Shown here in pieces: positions 11,448 to 25,550 of a stretch of 64,000 nucleotides of DNA; position 1 is the stretch's first letter; each line of letters starts with the position of its first letter. The stretch is from the IMG/VR virus record IMGVR_UViG_3300021093_000062, positions 4,575 through 68,574 of that record. One strand, 5' to 3'. The notes beneath the pieces are model-generated. The model did no database searches and was not told where the DNA came from. It saw only the letters and a list, made by a program, of their open reading frames with translations. The translations under genes and the position numbers were made by a program. Source of the DNA: a virus.

Positions 11448-12728
11448 TCATTCTGGTGCCAGAGGGTGCTCCACGTCGGGCACGGCGGGTTCTTCAGGCT
11501 GAGGCTCAAACTCAGCACGAAGCATGTCTTCGATGCCACGGTCCTTGATGATTTCGGATACCACGATCTTCTCGTTTTGAGAGACGAACTGTCCCATGAA
11601 CGCCCACAAGCTGAAGTCAACTCCAAGATGAACCAAGTCGCCTTCAAGCAACTGCAACGATTTGGTACCGATTGGAGTGGTTATACTACGTTGTGCGCGA
11701 GCGTTACGCAATGCCTGACCAAGCAAACGTATAGCAGGAGACTTGATCAGTTTCTTTTCCACTTCTTCATCGTAATTCCATTCCAACAACTTGAAGCGGT
11801 TGGCAAAGGCTTCGTTCGTCTTGGACATGCCAGCATAACCGGGATTCCATGAGGAAAGAATCCACAAGTTTTTGTTGGCATGTACGATTTCGGGACGGAA
11901 CGAACCCTCATGGGTTTCCACTCCAGTAACCGGATCGGTGAACACTCGTCCGTCCCACACCGGCTTGCGGATGTTGACGAACTGGTGACGGTTGTCTAGC
12001 AACGGGTGGATCGCAGCGGTAACAGCACCGCTCATTGCGTTCACCTCGTCAAGGTACAAGATACCGCCGATACGTACCGCTAAGGCAACAATGCCCTCCA
12101 TCCACACCAACTGCTCCTGACCATTGGCAACCACTGGTCGGTACTGGCCAAAGAGGTCATGGTCGGTGATTGCTGACGAACCGGCAAGAGTAAAAACCGG
12201 TAACGGTTTGCTAAGTCCCAACTGCTGTGCCACCTTGAATGCCATAACTTGAGTTAAGTATGTCTTACCTGACTGAGTGTCGCCCACTAGGGCGATAGAC
12301 ACCGGATACCCGTCGTTCTCGTCACGACGATTGAAGTATTTCATCATCACGTCGATATCGGTGAGGTTTCCTGCAAGAGTACGGGATACGTAGTTCTTGG
12401 GGTCGATGTTCGGTCGGAACGGATCGAGCGCCGGATCATCCAACGACTCGATTCGCAGGTTGCTGACTATCACCGCGTGCTGGTGCTGAGGGACATTGGA
12501 CGCGGCGGCGTTTGGGACGTTGGAACGTCCCAAGATAACAATGCCTTTGGGCAGTATCTCAACGACGCCCAGCATAGGCTCATCGAACGTCACTTCGATT
12601 TTGCTGCCGGGGCCACCAGGCACCAACGTTGCTCGGGTGATTGTTCCTTCGGCATTCTTGAACGGCGGGTACTTACCCATCACTCTCATGCCTTCTTTTA
12701 ATTCTTTGGTACTTGCCATTCTTACCAT
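11448..12728 (-). CDS. MoxR/CobS-like AAA+ ATPase
   Basis: Walker A 'GDTQSGKT', Walker B 'LYLDEVN', 'NPGYAG...AFANRF'. Confidence 0.9.
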   Translation of the reverse strand: MVRMASTKELKEGMRVMGKYPPFKNAEGTITRATLVPGGPGSKIEVTFDEPMLGVVEILPKGIVILGRSNVPNAAASNVPQHQHAVIVSNLRIESLDDPALDPFRPNIDPKNYVSRTLAGNLTDIDVMMKYFNRRDENDGYPVSIALVGDTQSGKTYLTQVMAFKVAQQLGLSKPLPVFTLAGSSAITDHDLFGQYRPVVANGQEQLVWMEGIVALAVRIGGILYLDEVNAMSGAVTAAIHPLLDNRHQFVNIRKPVWDGRVFTDPVTGVETHEGSFRPEIVHANKNLWILSSWNPGYAGMSKTNEAFANRFKLLEWNYDEEVEKKLIKSPAIRLLGQALRNARAQRSITTPIGTKSLQLLEGDLVHLGVDFSLWAFMGQFVSQNEKIVVSEIIKDRGIEDMLRAEFEPQPEEPAVPDVEHPLAPE

Positions 12729-12795: not shown

Positions 12796-12811
12796 TGTGA
12801 CAGAAGTCACA
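12796..12811. promoter_or_regulatory. CRP/GlxR-type palindromic site upstream of the AAA/vWA genes
   Basis: TGTGA-CAGAAG-TCACA, a perfect TGTGA-N6-TCACA in an intergenic gap. Confidence 0.6.
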
Positions 12812-14664: not shown

Positions 14665-15017
14665 CACTTGTCCTCCTCTTCCCACATCGTGTTGATCCAT
14701 TCAAACTCACATTCCAGTGAACACACCCCTGTCACTAGGTGAAGTTTCTCAGCTTTGCTCAGGTAACTGAGAGTTTGGACGTACTCAACGAGCCTATTCA
14801 TGGCCTCTGGCATGTCTTCTTCAGCGACCCCACCAAGTATGAGCGAGTACATCGCCCCCACCTCATCGGGTAGCACGTAGAAGTACTTGCTCTGACACAC
14901 TGGGCATCTAAACGTGCCCAGCACATATAGGCTGTCACACTCTGGGAAATAATCATCGGGTGCTTTTACTGAATACCCGATTTTTTGCATTTCTTTCTCT
15001 GTGAACTTGATAACCAT
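14664..15017 (-). CDS. Zn-ribbon-containing hypothetical protein
   Basis: CPVC...CxxxC; AAGGAG RBS before ATG 15017. Confidence 0.6.
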   Translation of the reverse strand: MVIKFTEKEMQKIGYSVKAPDDYFPECDSLYVLGTFRCPVCQSKYFYVLPDEVGAMYSLILGGVAEEDMPEAMNRLVEYVQTLSYLSKAEKLHLVTGVCSLECEFEWINTMWEEEDK

Positions 15018-15048
15018 TGTTGCTCCTTTTTTCAGCTTGAATTTTGTT

Positions 15049-15090
15049 AAAAAAAACACGAGGCTCACATATAGGTGTGTGAGTCTCGTG
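15049..15090 (-). terminator. Intrinsic terminator
   Basis: CACGAGACTCAC...GTGAGCCTCGTG hairpin followed by a T-run on the minus strand. Confidence 0.75.
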
Positions 15091-15096
15091 TTGGAC

Positions 15097-15270
15097 CTAG
15101 TCGTCGTAACGGTTGCGCCATTCCTCGTAGTACCATTCCGTTATTTCCTTCACCCCAAACGGGATAATGGAAGCAACGAAAAAGCCCAGAGAGAACAAAC
15201 TCCAGTCCTCGTTGTATGACAGTAGAGCCAGTATAAAACTGGCTATGATCATCAACTCTGTTACTATCAT
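15097..15270 (-). CDS. Small membrane protein (not in ORF track)
   Basis: Manual translation MIVTELMIIASFILALLSYNEDWSLFSLGFFVASIIPF... (57 aa); AAGGAG RBS. Confidence 0.6.
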   Translation of the reverse strand: MIVTELMIIASFILALLSYNEDWSLFSLGFFVASIIPFGVKEITEWYYEEWRNRYDD

Positions 15271-15434
15271 TGCTTCTCCTTTTTCCTGCGGCTAGCGGCT
15301 GCTGTCCGCTTTTCTTTTGCTTTTCCAACACACGCTGCACATGGTGCTGGGTTGTTCCAAACCCTGTCACCGTACGGGTGGTCGACCTCGACGTGGTTTT
15401 CGTGACCACATCTGTAAATGCATACAAACTTCAT
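15267..15434 (-). CDS. Small Zn-binding basic protein (not in ORF track)
   Basis: MKFVCIYRCGH...PCAAC...RRKKEKQ (55 aa); AAGGAG RBS; stop overlaps the next start. Confidence 0.6.
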   Translation of the reverse strand: MKFVCIYRCGHENHVEVDHPYGDRVWNNPAPCAACVGKAKEKRTAAASRRKKEKQ

Positions 15435-15461
15435 GGATTCTCCTTTTTTGTGGAAACTAGA

Positions 15462-15599
15462 GGTTGTAACAGCGGGTTACCTTTCCCAGCGAGCAAGAGA
15501 AGACGGATAATGAACCAAACCGTCTTGTGCTGGTGATTTAACGCCATGATGTCGCAGGTTACCCTTAACCCGGAAAGGACGGGGCTAGCTGTTACAACC
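15462..15599 (-). ncRNA. Putative ~140-nt structured RNA downstream of tRNA-Arg
   Basis: Perfect 12-bp terminal stem GGTTGTAACAGC/GCTGTTACAACC enclosing further stems. Confidence 0.5.
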
Positions 15600-15601
15600 A
15601 G

Positions 15602-15674
15602 TGCATCAGGAAGGGGTCGAACCTACAACCTACAGATTAGAAATCTGTTGCTCTATCCATTGAGCTACTGATGC
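15602..15674 (-). tRNA. trnR-UCU: tRNA-Arg (UCU)
   Basis: GCATCAG/CTGATGC acceptor stem, TAGCTCAATGGATAGAGC D-arm, ACAGA-TTTCTAA-TCTGT anticodon arm, GGTTCGAC T-loop; CCA not encoded. Confidence 0.92.
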
Positions 15675-15681
15675 ATGTCAT

Positions 15682-16260
15682 CGGTGGGCACAACAAGCAT
15701 GTGCGGGAAGTTCCTCGAACTACAGCCTACACTACCTAGGATGTGTACTGTATTCTTCTCAACTCTATGCAGCTTACAGTTGTTGATAATCCCATTGTTA
15801 TCATGCCTATTGTAGGAAGCCATTTTCGCTTCATACATAATAGGGTTCGATGGTTACCTGCCCGACAACACACAGGTAATGGCTAGGTACTAGCAGCCAC
15901 GACTAGGATGTGTAAACCCCACTTACGCCTGGGGGTACGGCGTTTTCGCGTTGGCTGTCTTTATATAGTACATCAGTCTACATTACTCATGGCCAACACT
16001 ACACGAAGTAGCATGTTAGGATTCTCACCAAAGAGACTATACAGTCTGTTTGTATAGTGATTTTGCTACTACATTTACCGTGATACTGCCCACGGCTGCA
16101 ACCTGTGCAACATAGAAATAGGAAGCATTTGCACATGCTTTGGTTTATGAACCACTACCTGCCGGGATACACCCAATGCGTTTCTATTGCGCATCTGTAC
16201 ACTTGTAGTTCTGCAGAACTACGCACTGCGTCTAGTGCCTAGGTCGGCTGTACATCACCG
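15682..16260 (-). ncRNA. Putative large ornate non-coding RNA (~580 nt)
   Basis: No ORF over 60 aa; long-range closing helices, about 10 internal hairpins and an H-type pseudoknot; abuts tRNA-Arg. Confidence 0.65.
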
Positions 16261-16376
16261 CTTAGATCTTAGTCCTCTGCGAAATTTCTGCGATGCTCAC
16301 TTCACTTGCTCCTTTTCTAATAATGCCCCACTCAAATATGGTGGAGTCAATGGTTGATACAGCCAACAACGATCTT

Positions 16377-16495
16377 GCCAGTGCATGGATCAGCCAGTCT
16401 TGCAGGGGGTGAGACGGCGATCAACATACACTGGCTTATGCCGTATACAAGGCTATGTGCTGATAGCAACTACAAATGGGGGGTGAGTAGTGCTA
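16377..16495 (-). ncRNA. Twin hairpins with C-rich loops (6C-RNA-like)
   Basis: Stems 16377-16435 and 16464-16495, each carrying CUCACCCCC(C) at the loop. Confidence 0.4.
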
Positions 16496-16525
16496 AAGCA
16501 GACGTTGCACTCAGACAACCTGGCA

Positions 16526-16633
16526 CAACGAAAGCATAGACCCATACATAGGCACAAGTTGTGACATTTGTCACATGATAGTGACAAGTGCCACATGGTG
16601 AGACATTTGTCACATGGTGAGACATTTGTCACA
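16526..16633 (-). promoter_or_regulatory. Promoter with four tandem CRP-type boxes
   Basis: -10 TATGCT (16538-16533); TGTGA-N6-TCACA-like sites at 16560-75, 16580-95, 16599-614 and 16618-33. Confidence 0.65.
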
Positions 16634-16760
16634 CTAGGCACCTCGTACTGGACGTCGCACCGTTTGCGACGCAAACCGGTCCAACCAGACGCAGGGAGCA
16701 GAGATGCCCCTCACACTAGGCTGGGTATGGCAGGGCAGATTTCTCAGCCGGATTTCGGGC

Positions 16761-16796
16761 AAAGAAGAAAGCCCCCCACCCTTGCGGGCGGGGGGC
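16761..16796 (-). terminator. Intrinsic terminator of the GC-rich gene
   Basis: GCCCCCCGCCC-GCAA-GGGTGGGGGGC followed by TTTCTTCTTT on the minus strand. Confidence 0.75.
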
Positions 16797-16814
16797 AATC
16801 TCCCTGGGGGGGGG

Positions 16815-17366
16815 TCAGAGGCTCTTGGAGAGAGCCACGACCAACGCTACCAGTTGCTGCTGAGCAACTGTCCGCTGATCGGCGGGTGTGGTCACCAATG
16901 CCAACTGGCAGGCTGCGAGTTGGCTGGTGGCACGCTCTGTGGCTATCCGCACTTCACGCTGTGCGGGGGTCTCTCCGTTGTTGGATTGACCCTCGGTCAG
17001 CCGTGCCCACGCTGCGTTCTGGTCTTGTGCCCCTGCGAGCAACGCCCTCAGAACGTCCGCGGACTTCTTGGAAGCCAAGAGCCGGTTCCAAACCGTCTGC
17101 CCCGCTTTCGCGGAGCCGACCGCCGGAAGGCTGAAGAAGAGTCCCCAAACGATGAGGATTCCCTCCCAGCCCGCGGGTAGCGTGTTGGCGGTGTACGCCT
17201 TAGCGATGACGTCCCCGATTTCCCTGCGGATTTCGGTCTCCTTGAGAGCCGCAATAGCGGGGGCGGAGGGACGCAAGTCGTCCCACGCTGCTTTCGCGGT
17301 TGCCTTGGAGTTGGACGCTGTGGCATCTGCCAAGAGCGTTTGCCTGACTGTGTCTAACACCGACAT
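16815..17366 (-). CDS. Ala-rich helical hypothetical protein in a GC-rich island
   Basis: AAGGAG RBS, own terminator, GC-rich codons unlike the flanks. Confidence 0.7.
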   Translation of the reverse strand: MSVLDTVRQTLLADATASNSKATAKAAWDDLRPSAPAIAALKETEIRREIGDVIAKAYTANTLPAGWEGILIVWGLFFSLPAVGSAKAGQTVWNRLLASKKSADVLRALLAGAQDQNAAWARLTEGQSNNGETPAQREVRIATERATSQLAACQLALVTTPADQRTVAQQQLVALVVALSKSL

Positions 17367-17567
17367 GTTGTCTCCTTGTCGTAATGCCGGCGCTTGTCGC
17401 CGGTCATGCCATCGTTATGGGGGCGACCGGAAAGCGTCCTCGGTAGGGCCCAGCCCCCAATGATCACCCCACTACGCAATAGCCCTATTCTAAATGGGGG
17501 GTTACCCGTGGGTAACTGGGCACCTGGGTATAGGGTAATATAGACCTATACACAAGAAGGTTAACAC

Positions 17568-23997: not shown

Positions 23998-24071
23998 GCC
24001 GGATGGTGCGTCCGGTTGACGCAAGGTGTCTTATAAACACCCGTAGACGGGTTCAACTCCCGTATCCGGCA
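23998..24071 (+). tRNA. trnI-UAU: tRNA-Ile (UAU)
   Basis: GCCGGAT/ATCCGGC acceptor stem, GGTGT-CTTATAA-ACACC anticodon arm, ACGGG-TTCAACT-CCCGT T-arm; non-canonical G at position 8. Confidence 0.8.
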
Positions 24072-24088
24072 CTGTTATAATTGATAAC

Positions 24089-24253
24089 ATGGTTGTTACT
24101 TACACTATCAGCACTCCAATGATGCACGATGCACGTAGCATTGCTATGCGCCGTGCTACGGCAGAGGGCTGGGGTAGAGTGTCAGTAACTAACGTAAAGC
24201 AAGTTGGCGCACAAGCTTACGAAGTTACTTTGATAGTTTCTAAGTACTCATGA
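24089..24253 (+). CDS. Small hypothetical protein (probably leaderless)
   Basis: TATAAT 7 nt before the ATG; 54 aa; manual translation. Confidence 0.5.
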   Translation: MVVTYTISTPMMHDARSIAMRRATAEGWGRVSVTNVKQVGAQAYEVTLIVSKYS

Positions 24254-24381
24254 GCGACGAAAAGCAGTGTGATACCTCGACACAGTGTGTTTACTGTGGT
24301 GGTCAGCTGGTTCCAGAACATGCACACTATAAGTGTAAAGATTGTGGTAGACGTGACGCATGCTGTGAAGGAGTATATTGA
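24250..24381 (+). CDS. Small Zn-ribbon protein
   Basis: CVYCGG...HAHYKCKDCG..DACCEG; ATGA coupling with the upstream gene. Confidence 0.6.
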   Translation: MSDEKQCDTSTQCVYCGGQLVPEHAHYKCKDCGRRDACCEGVY

Positions 24382-25550
24382 TTAAAAAGCTATTTGGAAG
24401 AGTCATAAGTGTCTCAAAATGGTCTTTAATAGTTTTATCAATATTCCCAGTTAGCTCTGCTAAAGCAGAACCAGTGACTTACACCGTAACAGGGGCTAAC
24501 GATCTGTGGTTCACGTACACAGAACCTTCTGATTTCAAGGTACGTACTTATGCATGGCAGTACGGTATTGACTCGATGCTATGGCTATACGACGCGCAAG
24601 ATAACCTAATTGCTCAAAACGACGACTTCTTTGGTTTGGATTCATGGATTGAAGTACCCGTACAACCAGGTACGTACAGGTTGCGTACTGGGGTATGCTG
24701 TGGAGATCCAAACAGGTGGTATGGTACTAGCTATACTGTAGAGCTAAACACCACCCCAACGAACACTCCTGAGACGACAACGACATGGCCGGAAACTACA
24801 ACATCCACAACTTCAACGACGACGAGTACTACCACTGCCCCAACAACGACTGTGCCTGTCACGGAACCCCCGGTTACTACGAGCACCTCAACGTCTACGG
24901 AGGCCCCGACCACTACGGAAATGCCGACCACTACGGAAATACCGACGACCACGGAAATACCGACCACTACGGAAATACCGACAGCGCCCAGTATTCCCAT
25001 TGTGATTCCCCCGACTCTCCCTTCTACTACCACTACTACCACTACAACAACGGTCGTCTCAACGTCTACGAGCACCTCCATACCGGAGTCAACCAGTTCG
25101 TCTACCAGCACGCCCACAACAACGACTGTGCCTGTGGAGAATGGCCCTCAGGTATCTGAGGAAGAGCTACTAAATCTCTCAGACGAGGAACTCACCGATC
25201 TAGTAGAATCTATAGAGATAAGTGAACTAACTGAGGAAGCAATTGCCGCTGTATTCAGCGAAGAAGTACTTAGCGAACTATCTGTAGACCAGGTAGAAGC
25301 ACTAATTGACGCAATTGAGCCCGAAACATTGTCTGATGAACAAGCTTTAATACTGTCTGAGGCTTTAACTAACGCCCCAGATAGCGTAAAAGAAGAGTTT
25401 GAATCTGAAATAGATGTTTTTGGTGGCCAGTTTGACACATACGTACCCATTGGTTCTACGGTGTCCGTAGGCGCACGACGAGTAGTAGTTGCTGCTGCGG
25501 CAGCAAGTTTTGCAATGCCAACCCCCACTAGCTCAAGGAAAGTTAGATGA
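24378..25550 (+). CDS. Secreted surface protein: PPC-like beta domain, mucin-like Thr linker, acidic helical region
   Basis: Signal peptide ('SSAKA'), 'DSMLWLYD...NDD..GLDS', long T/P/S tract. Confidence 0.75.
   Translation: MIKKLFGRVISVSKWSLIVLSIFPVSSAKAEPVTYTVTGANDLWFTYTEPSDFKVRTYAWQYGIDSMLWLYDAQDNLIAQNDDFFGLDSWIEVPVQPGTYRLRTGVCCGDPNRWYGTSYTVELNTTPTNTPETTTTWPETTTSTTSTTTSTTTAPTTTVPVTEPPVTTSTSTSTEAPTTTEMPTTTEIPTTTEIPTTTEIPTAPSIPIVIPPTLPSTTTTTTTTTVVSTSTSTSIPESTSSSTSTPTTTTVPVENGPQVSEEELLNLSDEELTDLVESIEISELTEEAIAAVFSEEVLSELSVDQVEALIDAIEPETLSDEQALILSEALTNAPDSVKEEFESEIDVFGGQFDTYVPIGSTVSVGARRVVVAAAAASFAMPTPTSSRKVR
24906..24983 (+). repeat. 18-bp coding tandem repeat (PTTTE[M/I] x4)
   Basis: ccgaccactacggaaat(a/g) units. 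Confidence 0.85.

Follow-up and report, generated by a model that had tools for sequence, protein, structure and literature searches.

Downstream of its tRNA-Arg gene (71173-71247), bacteriophage T4 carries two small RNA genes, rnaD (71053-71171) and rnaC (70908-71046). Their products, RNAD (species 2, 119 nt) and RNAC (species 1, 139 nt), are described as stable RNAs whose function has been unknown for decades, and neither has an Rfam family. A second point of comparison is offered by ROOL and GOLLD, two unrelated large non-coding RNAs with many helices and multistem junctions, which are reported from phages and prophages, often near tRNAs (bioRxiv 10.1101/2024.12.08.627333; PMC5737381). The mean length given for ROOL is 581 nt (PMC5737381). 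Both RNAs were recently found to form RNA-only cages of unknown function, and the name GOLLD is said to derive partly from lake metagenomes (bioRxiv 10.1101/2024.12.08.627333). Here we analysed a locus on the minus strand of the window, by which we mean the whole 64,000-nucleotide stretch of viral DNA that was studied. On balance, we judge it probable that the locus is part of an operon, leftward and under operator control, in a freshwater phage with a contractile tail, and that two dedicated, structured non-coding RNAs, each of a family not described before, stand on either side of its tRNA-Arg(UCU).

The locus shares several features with T4. In both, a same-strand RNA of about 120-140 nt follows a phage tRNA-Arg by 1-2 nt (rnaD starts 2 nt past the tRNA, the same offset as for the small RNA here), the ends of RNAC are paired like those of our small RNA, and the tRNA-bearing operon of T4 also has ORFs, as in the relatives of this phage. 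However, RNAC bears a tRNA-like T arm (CCGGGUUCGAAUCCCGG) that the small RNA does not have, and the gene upstream of tRNA-Arg in T4 is segB, with no large RNA, whereas a 587-nt RNA stands there in our locus. RNAC and RNAD accumulate as stable RNAs. A covariance model of the small RNA (R1) gave no match to RNAC or RNAD at E <= 10 in the T4 region. The large RNA, which we call type A, is like ROOL and GOLLD in being large, non-coding, rich in helices and multistem junctions and phage-borne beside a tRNA gene; it has both the context and the length of ROOL (587 nt, ending 7 nt upstream of a phage tRNA-Arg). Just as ROOL and GOLLD are unrelated RNAs in a shared tRNA-linked context, so are type A and a second RNA, type B, found in the same slot of other phages. 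Type A differs in being known from only three lineages and in matching neither the ROOL nor the GOLLD covariance model. The sequence-only reading had singled out this locus as a candidate for an undescribed system; the RNA sequences are indeed new, but the layout has precedents in the tRNA-Arg, RNAD and RNAC of T4 and in ROOL and GOLLD near phage tRNAs.

Layout of the locus and its relatives

In minus-strand order the locus comprises a terminator, a four-site array, a leader, a 12-codon ORF, the 587-nt RNA, tRNA-Arg(UCU), a 138-nt RNA, two microprotein genes and a second terminator. ARAGORN, Rfam, repeat, fold and terminator scans recovered on the minus strand every element that the sequence-only reading had listed. 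An artefact of assembly is ruled out for the layout, since a DNA contig from a separate run bridges positions 15155-16293 with zero differences. Twenty runs contain the stretch, all of them lake-water or freshwater DNA; in 4 of these 20 the contigs, also DNA, are free of joints and differ only by T>C at 16262. The terminase shows 45% identity to Streptomyces phage terminases, which makes a freshwater actinobacterium a candidate host. At ~17.4 kb, ~1 kb from the locus, genes diverge and the cumulative GC skew is lowest.

Both flanking segments, on whose presence and constraint in close relatives the sequence-only reading had let its proposal depend, are present and constrained there, being found in three related lake-phage lineages. 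Synteny, which had been proposed as a check, held in part: the order terminator, operators, leader, large RNA, tRNA-Arg and small RNA is identical in L002, L003 and L071, but ORFs and a tRNA-Met intervene and more distant relatives differ. In these, an unrelated structured RNA of ~420 nt (type B) occupies the slot upstream of tRNA-Arg; L027 is one of its carriers. Type A occurs in three lineages, all lake phages, and type B in six. A type-B profile run over 72 sequences matched only the 7 type-B loci, and with nhmmer it gave no match in the window, L002, L003 or L067.

Searches for further members were made in several ways. With blastn, positions 15000-16900 matched 145 of 50,697 phage records, in each case through the tRNA only (3-4% of the query). 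No related locus was found with a 117-aa protein as the query, a contig scan for a 19-nt block taken from the large RNA came back empty, and a model of the 5' domain of the large RNA (R2) detected nothing beyond the known lineages across 62 sources. A protein-anchored scan returned nine loci, seven of them already known and two (L076 and L081) with neither a tRNA nor an R1 match. Three other candidates were rejected, namely L007 and L008, picked up with the pattern GGTAGTGGTTNATAAACCAA, which are 20-nt chance matches without a tRNA, and L072, a chance match of a degenerate small-RNA core pattern to GC-rich coding DNA. We found no description of these RNAs in the literature, and the supplementary motif lists of PMC5737381 could hold a related motif.

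Two structured RNAs around tRNA-Arg

The tRNA-Arg(UCU) gene (15601-15674, minus strand) was identified by ARAGORN as tRNA-Arg(tct) and by the Rfam tRNA model RF00005, which scored it at 70.8 bits where the gathering score is 29. Its CCA is not encoded and its acceptor stem covaries between lineages. Neither flanking RNA matches an Rfam family, and the idea of a ribozyme or of a group I or group II intron was set aside, as positions 14900-17000 gave no such match at E <= 10.

The large RNA (15675-16261, minus strand; fold z-score -3.8), estimated at 580 nt in the sequence-only reading, is 587 nt long and ranges from 520 to 590 nt across lineages. It is a conserved non-coding RNA whose helices are maintained by compensatory changes on the tRNA strand. 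In an RNAalifold consensus of four sequences from three lineages (L067 is 95% identical to L002, leaving only three independent lineages), 24 of 93 pairs had changed on both sides and 98.4% of cells were paired, counts that are inflated because the consensus structures were built from the same alignments used for pair counting and one alignment, A8, had been adjusted to fit the model. Controls with a slid 3' partner gave 0-5 double-changed pairs and 34-46% paired, and none of 500 shuffles matched the observed values. The terminal helix, in which 5' CGGUG pairs with 3' CACCG, and several other helices are invariant, so that covariation is uninformative there. Altogether the RNA has 17 helices, with invariant single-stranded blocks that include a 23-nt block at the 5' end and an invariant self-complementary CUGCAG loop on a covarying stem. 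The 5' 200 nt, which hold invariant blocks, are 79% identical; the middle is weakly conserved, and blastn leaves 15688-16060 unaligned to L002. The tRNA strand folds with an energy of -90.2 kcal/mol, compared with -72.0 kcal/mol for its complement. As it stands in the window, this RNA has 10-16 stops in each frame, and every frame is stopped in all lineages. Its substitutions fall on the three codon positions as 32/29/27, compared with 12/5/27 and 29/17/50 for the flanking genes, and the alignment has many 1-2 nt indels.

The small RNA (15462-15599, minus strand), put at 140 nt before, is 138 nt long, starts 2 nt past the tRNA, and has a conserved, strand-specific structure with a fold z-score of -3.4 to -3.8. 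A perfect 12-nt inverted repeat (15462-15473/15588-15599) forms the 12-bp closing stem P1, which encloses P2, a hairpin whose loop is UCCUUUC, then P3 and two further hairpins, P4 and the variable P5. Half of its consensus pairs (18 of 36) had changed on both sides and the paired share was 96.3%, compared with 0-5 double-changed pairs in slid controls, the pair count being subject to the same inflation. In each flanking RNA, a terminal helix thus holds both ends. L027 has a shorter homologue immediately 3' of tRNA-Arg; its P1 sequence is wholly different and its P3 has covaried, and ACCUGCG...GCGUU...AAAGGU is retained. This homologue adjoins tRNA-Arg despite a different downstream gene. The small RNA is missing in six of seven distinct more distant loci (L011, L018, L023, L054, L056 and L061) and is therefore dispensable; in those six the tRNA itself abuts a ribosome-binding site. 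The idea that the small RNA is of a T-loop or Y-RNA-like (YrlA) kind was set aside, and no T arm was seen.

Downstream of the small RNA lie the genes for a 55-aa zinc-ribbon microprotein (CxxxC...CxxC) with a basic tail (15267-15434, minus strand), conserved in L002 and L003, and for a 57-aa hydrophobic microprotein (15097-15270, minus strand), conserved in relatives with substitutions by codon position of 12/5/27. The operon closes with an intrinsic terminator (15047-15092, minus strand) whose 15-nt arms (15055-15069/15078-15092) are 93% complementary and are followed by a T run. Both genes and the terminator had been proposed from the sequence, and all three stand.

Presumed operator array, leader and deletion scar

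On the upstream side, the intrinsic terminator of a 183-aa gene (16771-16796, minus strand), with an 11-bp stem of which 10 pairs are G-C and a T-rich tail, sets off what follows as a transcription unit of its own; a counterpart of this terminator could be aligned in L027 and L071. It is followed by four palindromes (16560-16633) of the form TGTGAC-N4-GTCACA, with 0-2 mismatches and spacings of 20, 19 and 19 nt. All four are retained in L002, L003, L071 and L027, with the central 4 nt variable. In the whole 64-kb window six such palindromes occur at <=2 mismatches, against 3.5 expected, and a fifth, perfect copy lies at 12796-12811, upstream of a different gene. The sites fit the CRP-type consensus TGTGA-N6-TCACA, from which CRP control of the locus might be inferred. 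Of the CRP-box promoter of the sequence-only reading, the four consensus-fitting sites are present. A simple sigma-70 scan of the minus strand recognised no promoter in 16540-16770; we therefore presume a promoter from the strong terminator that stands upstream. Set two helical turns apart, the four sites look more like a repressor operator array than like CRP control. Four tandem sites 19-20 nt apart over a presumed promoter resemble cooperative repressor operators, unlike a single activator site.

The leader that follows (16315-16559, minus strand) is conserved and has a fold z-score of -2.8. Its minimum-energy fold holds two hairpins with C-rich loops, one with a CACCCCCC loop (about 16466-16493) that is kept in all five aligned sequences, and another with a CACCCCC loop (about 16397-16415) that is altered in L002 and L071 and not alignable in L027. 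Positions 16311-16718 are 90% identical to L003 and L069, compared with 72-76% for the flanking parts. An antiterminator role like that of HK022 put was considered for these hairpins and set aside.

Next to the leader, an AAGGAG (16309-16314) precedes a 12-codon ORF (MSIAEISQRTKI) that begins with GTG at 16300 and ends at 16262 (feature 16262-16314, minus strand). The sequence-only reading had remarked on a ribosome-binding site serving only so short an ORF, and both elements are present. In L002, L003, L071 and L027, however, 1-3 ORFs together with a tRNA-Met separate the leader from the large RNA, and the extra DNA at this site amounts to about 0.8-1.2 kb in L002 and L003. The L003 ORF at the start position of the 12-codon ORF begins MNIKEIE. 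Judged from these relatives, the 12-codon ORF is a deletion scar, fusing the start of their first ORF to the tail of their last. With ORFs placed before the large RNA in four relatives, the locus is not an operon of RNAs only, and the earlier 'RNA operon' view has to be amended.

Proposed release of the RNAs and competing explanations

From this arrangement we infer co-transcription and release by tRNA processing. A single transcript would begin in the operator region and stop at the ~15050 terminator; a scan of the minus strand from 16771 to 15205 gave no terminator-like site, which makes one transcript cut at the tRNA ends the simplest reading. RNase P would free the large RNA by its cut at the 5' end of the tRNA. 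An endonucleolytic cut after the discriminator base would be required as well, because CCA is not encoded and the 12-bp helix would block 3' exonucleases. By that cut the small RNA would be released, on its own or joined to the microprotein mRNA as its structured 5' cap. Their paired ends may confer exonuclease resistance on both RNAs, which might therefore accumulate, by analogy with RNAC and RNAD of T4.

The RNAs most likely do their job in trans, tied to the phage tRNA rather than to neighbouring proteins, since the small RNA stays by tRNA-Arg as the downstream gene changes and the upstream slot swaps two large RNAs. This pattern of presence, absence and exchange links the RNAs to tRNA-Arg and not to any protein gene, and gives comparative leverage on why phages keep structured RNAs beside tRNAs. 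Large, elaborately folded RNAs are rare in bacteria and phages. This locus brings as many as three new families of structured RNA (587 nt, 138 nt and, in relatives, ~420 nt) into the same tRNA-linked niche, and the RNAs are compact constructs for processing assays and structural work. It is tempting to speculate, with low confidence, that the tRNA-Arg slot holds interchangeable large-RNA cassettes (type A or B), which tRNA-processing enzymes would excise and which might form RNA-only particles through a possible CUGCAG loop contact; together with a Y-RNA-like or RNAC-like companion they might act on the phage tRNA, host translation or a tRNA-targeting defence.

The alternative that survives best, although we consider it unlikely, is that both segments act in cis only, as spacers or UTR elements of a mixed mRNA/tRNA operon that shield long untranslated RNA from Rho and nucleases, present the tRNA to processing enzymes and cap or gate the microprotein mRNA, the free RNAs having no function. 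The small RNA ends ~15 nt upstream of the Shine-Dalgarno of the 55-aa gene with no terminator between them, its P2 loop UCCUUUC is complementary to purine-rich AAAGGA-type ribosome-binding sites, and the operon of the relatives includes ORFs. Its absence from six of the seven distant loci, where the tRNA takes its place beside a ribosome-binding site, fits a cis role as well. However, 587 nt with 17 helices, invariant single-stranded blocks and the CUGCAG loop exceed the needs of a spacer, the small RNA of L027 remains with tRNA-Arg though the downstream gene differs, and T4 RNAC and RNAD, as described, are a precedent for such segments accumulating as stable RNAs.

It is improbable that the large RNA is a highly divergent member of ROOL or GOLLD, despite its position beside a phage tRNA, a length close to the mean reported for ROOL and a lake-water source that recalls the reported origin of the name GOLLD. 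Run over the 68.6-kb record at E <= 10, the ROOL model RF03087 (gathering score 99.1 bits) came up empty, which is weak evidence because the control genomes also gave no signal. The model of the conserved 3' domain of GOLLD, RF02032 (gathering score 150 bits), likewise gave none in the record at E <= 10, and neither family is among the 18 Rfam matches at E <= 10 in positions 14900-17000.

Very little weight can be given to the proposal that the pairing acts in DNA, as a replication origin, a packaging site or a recombination site with the TGTGAC repeats as iterons. It could draw on the GC skew minimum and gene divergence ~1 kb away, on the four tandem repeats, and on the small RNA, whose perfect 12-nt terminal inverted repeats and presence or absence in relatives are insertion-like. 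Yet the predicted helices of the large RNA have 37 G-U against 2 A-C pairs and those of the small RNA 24 against 0, ratios to which the prediction itself contributes by favouring G-U, and in three of three alignments the tRNA strand gives a better fold than the complementary strand. Moreover, the terminal repeats covary without keeping their sequence, which speaks against recognition by a transposase, and the perfect palindrome at 12796-12811 upstream of another gene fits an operator better than an iteron.

That the ORF-free stretch is decaying coding sequence or functionless filler is scarcely credible, for although a deletion lies directly adjacent and conservation is low in the middle part of the large RNA, the compensatory changes, the lack of codon periodicity, the stops in every frame of all lineages and the identity of the 5' 200 nt all speak against it.

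Layout and relatives of the tRNA-Arg locus

The locus lies on the minus strand, inside the block of leftward genes left of ~17.4 kb. In minus-strand order, a strong intrinsic terminator after a 183-aa gene (16771-16796) is followed by four TGTGAC-N4-GTCACA palindromes (16560-16633), a leader of ~245 nt with two C-rich-loop hairpins, an AAGGAG and a 12-codon ORF ending at 16262, an ORF-free stretch of 587 nt (15675-16261; the large RNA, type A), tRNA-Arg(UCU) (15601-15674), a 138-nt element with a perfect 12-bp closing stem (15462-15599; the small RNA), two small ORFs of 55 and 57 aa, and a terminator with a T run (15055-15092). Every element listed in the sequence-only reading, from palindromes to terminator, was found in this order, and a contig from another run covers 15155-16293 with zero differences. 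In relatives, a third microprotein, similar to the 55-aa protein and with a CGH...CxCxxC motif and a basic tail, is encoded between the 57-aa and 117-aa genes (L002:9383-9526, L003:6240-6434), where the window has a terminator only.

The source record is a 68.6-kb IMG/VR virus (the window is its bases 4575-68574; estimated completeness 74%) that encodes a portal, terminase, tail sheath and tail-collar protein and is therefore a contractile-tailed phage. The 20 public runs containing the locus are all DNA samples from lakes or other fresh water. Because the terminase shares 45% identity with terminases of Streptomyces phages, e.g., BRock and LuckySocke, a freshwater actinobacterium can be guessed at as host.

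Among cultured phages, the 145 matching records each align over 3-4% of the query, with no similarity beyond the tRNA. We then sought relatives in IMG/VR and JGI metagenomes with protein anchors and short DNA blocks, which placed the same locus in three lineages, namely the window with L066 (99% identical); L002, L004, L068 and L071, with L067 at 95%; and L003, L005, L069 and L006/L070. Identity between lineages ranges over 64-74% for the large RNA and 63-75% for the small one. The sequence-only reading had named absence or lack of constraint of the flanking segments in close relatives as one refutation, and both are present and constrained across all three lineages. A 25-nt tRNA fragment retrieved 59 IMG/VR stretches, 56 of which (L009-L064) were searched with covariance models of both RNAs. 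The small-RNA model gave a single further copy, at L027 11528-11623 (22.5 bits, E 0.055 in that search), placed exactly at the tRNA-Arg 3' end, while the model of the large-RNA 5' domain gave none among L009-L064.

Structured RNAs on both sides of the tRNA

By sequence criteria, the large RNA is non-coding. Stops number 10-16 per frame in the window and 12-13 in L003, and window-L003 substitutions by codon position are 32/29/27, compared with 12/5/27 and 29/17/50 in two flanking genes; indels between the two are mostly of 1-2 nt. Single-sequence folds of all three segments beat their shuffles, with z-scores of -3.8 (large RNA), -3.4 to -3.8 (small RNA) and -2.8 (leader). The RNAalifold consensus of four large-RNA sequences has 93 pairs in 17 helices, with both-side changes that keep pairing in 24 of the 93 and standard pairs in 98.4% of cells, values that come from three independent lineages only and from a structure scored on the alignment it was derived from. 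When the 3' partners were slid by 1-3 columns, 0-5 pairs changed on both sides and 34-46% of cells were paired, and none of 500 shuffles attained the observed values. The consensus folds at -90.2 kcal/mol on the tRNA strand versus -72.0 kcal/mol on the complement, and G-U outnumbers A-C pairs by 37 to 2, a ratio in which G-U is favoured by the prediction itself. The predicted terminal helix (5' CGGUG with 3' CACCG), which shuts the large RNA 7 nt ahead of the tRNA, is conserved without any variation. In one hairpin, 4 of 5 pairs covary beneath an invariant, self-complementary CUGCAG loop, a candidate intermolecular contact in the modelled fold.

The small-RNA consensus comprises P1, a closing stem of 12 bp; P2, a hairpin whose pyrimidine loop reads UCCUUUC; stem P3; hairpin P4; and P5, a hairpin that varies. 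Across seven sequences, in an alignment that was fitted to the model, 18 of 36 pairs changed on both sides and 96.3% of cells were paired; slid controls gave 0-5 such pairs and 0/500 shuffles attained the observed values. In the L027 copy, the P1 sequence is wholly different, P3 has covaried and P5 is absent, with the single-stranded motifs ACCUGCG, GCGUU and AAAGGU retained. We hold it very probable that both segments are selected RNA structures.

In more distant relatives the large-RNA position is filled by another ORF-free stretch of ~420 nt, which separates tRNA-Arg from the last ORF. This type B RNA is found at L027:11023-11454, L011:4649-5081, L018:1109-1533, L061:4232-4720 (-) (with L056), L054:11950-12380 (-) and L023:7652-8064 (-), and is conserved among those loci (nhmmer E 1e-103 to 1e-134). 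Both-side changes affect 18 of its 85 consensus pairs, among them pairs of an 11-bp hairpin just 5' of the tRNA, which changes from GUAUAU/AUAUAC to GUGUGU/ACACAC and GUGCAU/AUGCAC. Type B has no similarity to the large RNA of the window and, searched with the L027 sequence, no Rfam match; the position next to tRNA-Arg is therefore taken by either of two unrelated large structured RNAs. The small RNA accompanies both, type A in three lineages and type B in L027. There, a phrog_3777-like protein replaces the zinc-ribbon microprotein as the next gene, and six distinct loci that share this downstream gene (L011, L018, L023, L054, L056, L061) lack the small RNA and have a ribosome-binding site immediately after the tRNA. 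The small RNA is therefore optional and, as these gene orders indicate, tied to tRNA-Arg and not to one downstream gene. The swap and the presence/absence pattern, read across loci, link the RNAs to tRNA-Arg.

Operon content and control region

The proposed 'RNA operon' stood as far as the conserved structured RNAs beside the tRNA are concerned, and needs correction in that the unit is not RNA-only. L002, L071, L003 and L027 share the terminator, operator array and leader; one to three ORFs (71-135 aa) and tRNA-Met come next in them, and only after these the large-RNA slot and tRNA-Arg. The operon is thus a mixed unit that, like the one in T4, combines mRNA, tRNA and non-coding RNA. Relative to these, the window is short of ~0.8-1.2 kb between leader and large RNA. 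The 12-codon ORF starts like the first ORF of L003 (MSIAEIS vs MNIKEIE) and ends as the tail of the last ORF; it is a scar left by a deletion, and no leader peptide by design.

Conservation is highest in the operator-leader block, at 90% identity between window and L003 over 16311-16718, compared with 72-76% nearby. All four palindromes are retained in all lineages, including L027, with the central 4 nt variable. The sites do match the CRP consensus, as proposed for a CRP-box promoter. Four of them, spaced by two helical turns across a presumed promoter, look more like a cooperative repressor array. A simple scan of the minus strand between 16540 and 16770 found no sigma-70-type promoter. A fifth, perfect palindrome (TGTGACAGAAGTCACA) is intergenic at 12796-12811, upstream of an AAA_5/CobS-like gene (11448-12728, -), and the palindrome-binding regulator probably also controls a second promoter there. 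Upstream of the array, within a possible hairpin, a block GCGUCGCAAACG (16661-16672, -) is unchanged in 5 of 5 aligned lineages, including L027. Separately, a ~55-nt block in the leader of the 183-aa gene (17437-17491, -) is 89-93% identical in L003, L070 and L071, precedes a different, 206-aa gene in L003, and includes ACCCCCCAUUU, an 11-mer identical to the loop of leader hairpin 1.

Proposed processing and known RNA systems

Governed by the operator array, transcription would begin past the 16771-16796 terminator and end at ~15050; between these points no terminator-like sites were found on the minus strand. RNase P would cut 7 nt past the large-RNA terminal helix. Because neither the window nor L002 or L003 encodes CCA, and the 12-bp P1 starts 2 nt past the tRNA, an endonuclease would have to make a second cut just after the discriminator base; CCA addition would follow. 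The small RNA would thereby come free, either by itself or still joined to the microprotein mRNA as its structured 5' end. The predicted termini of both RNAs are buried in helices, compatible with stable products. We consider release of both from a common precursor through tRNA processing fairly likely, and lean slightly towards action in trans, not just in cis. In L027 (11527-11532), CCA is encoded after the discriminator base, where the window, L002 and L003 have CUG and L011 has CCC, so the 3'-processing route may differ among relatives.

Rfam at the gathering threshold gave only tRNA in the window, and at E <= 10 nothing credible over 14900-17000. ROOL (RF03087) and GOLLD (RF02032) had no match in the whole record; for ROOL, the control genomes were equally silent. 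Passages on these large phage and prophage RNAs describe them as often near tRNAs and possibly co-transcribed (bioRxiv 10.1101/2024.12.08.627333; PMC5737381), and as forming cages, a recent demonstration (bioRxiv 10.1101/2024.12.08.627333). The large RNA shares their niche and, by these searches, belongs to neither family; that it oligomerises as they do seems unlikely. In the T4 record, rnaD (119 nt) and then rnaC (139 nt) come after tRNA-Arg (71173-71247) on its strand, a placement like that of the small RNA, and a homing-endonuclease gene precedes the tRNA. Passages in reviews give RNAC and RNAD as tRNA-region products of unknown role. They have no Rfam family and no sequence or structure similarity to the small RNA, whose model has no match in the T4 region, and the T-arm-like hairpin of RNAC is absent from the small RNA. 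A literature search, supplements aside, returned no description of the large, small or type B RNAs. The locus is thus of a known kind, structured RNAs embedded in a phage tRNA operon, with RNA families outside Rfam; what the sequence-only reading observed holds, and its interpretation is supported in part.

The same theme occurs at a second tRNA, where an ORF-free element of ~165 nt (24073-24245, +; fold z -2.5) directly follows tRNA-Ile(UAU) (23998-24072) and precedes a CxxC microprotein gene (24250-24382); it occurs in the window and L070, is missing from L002 and gives way to other sequence in L027.
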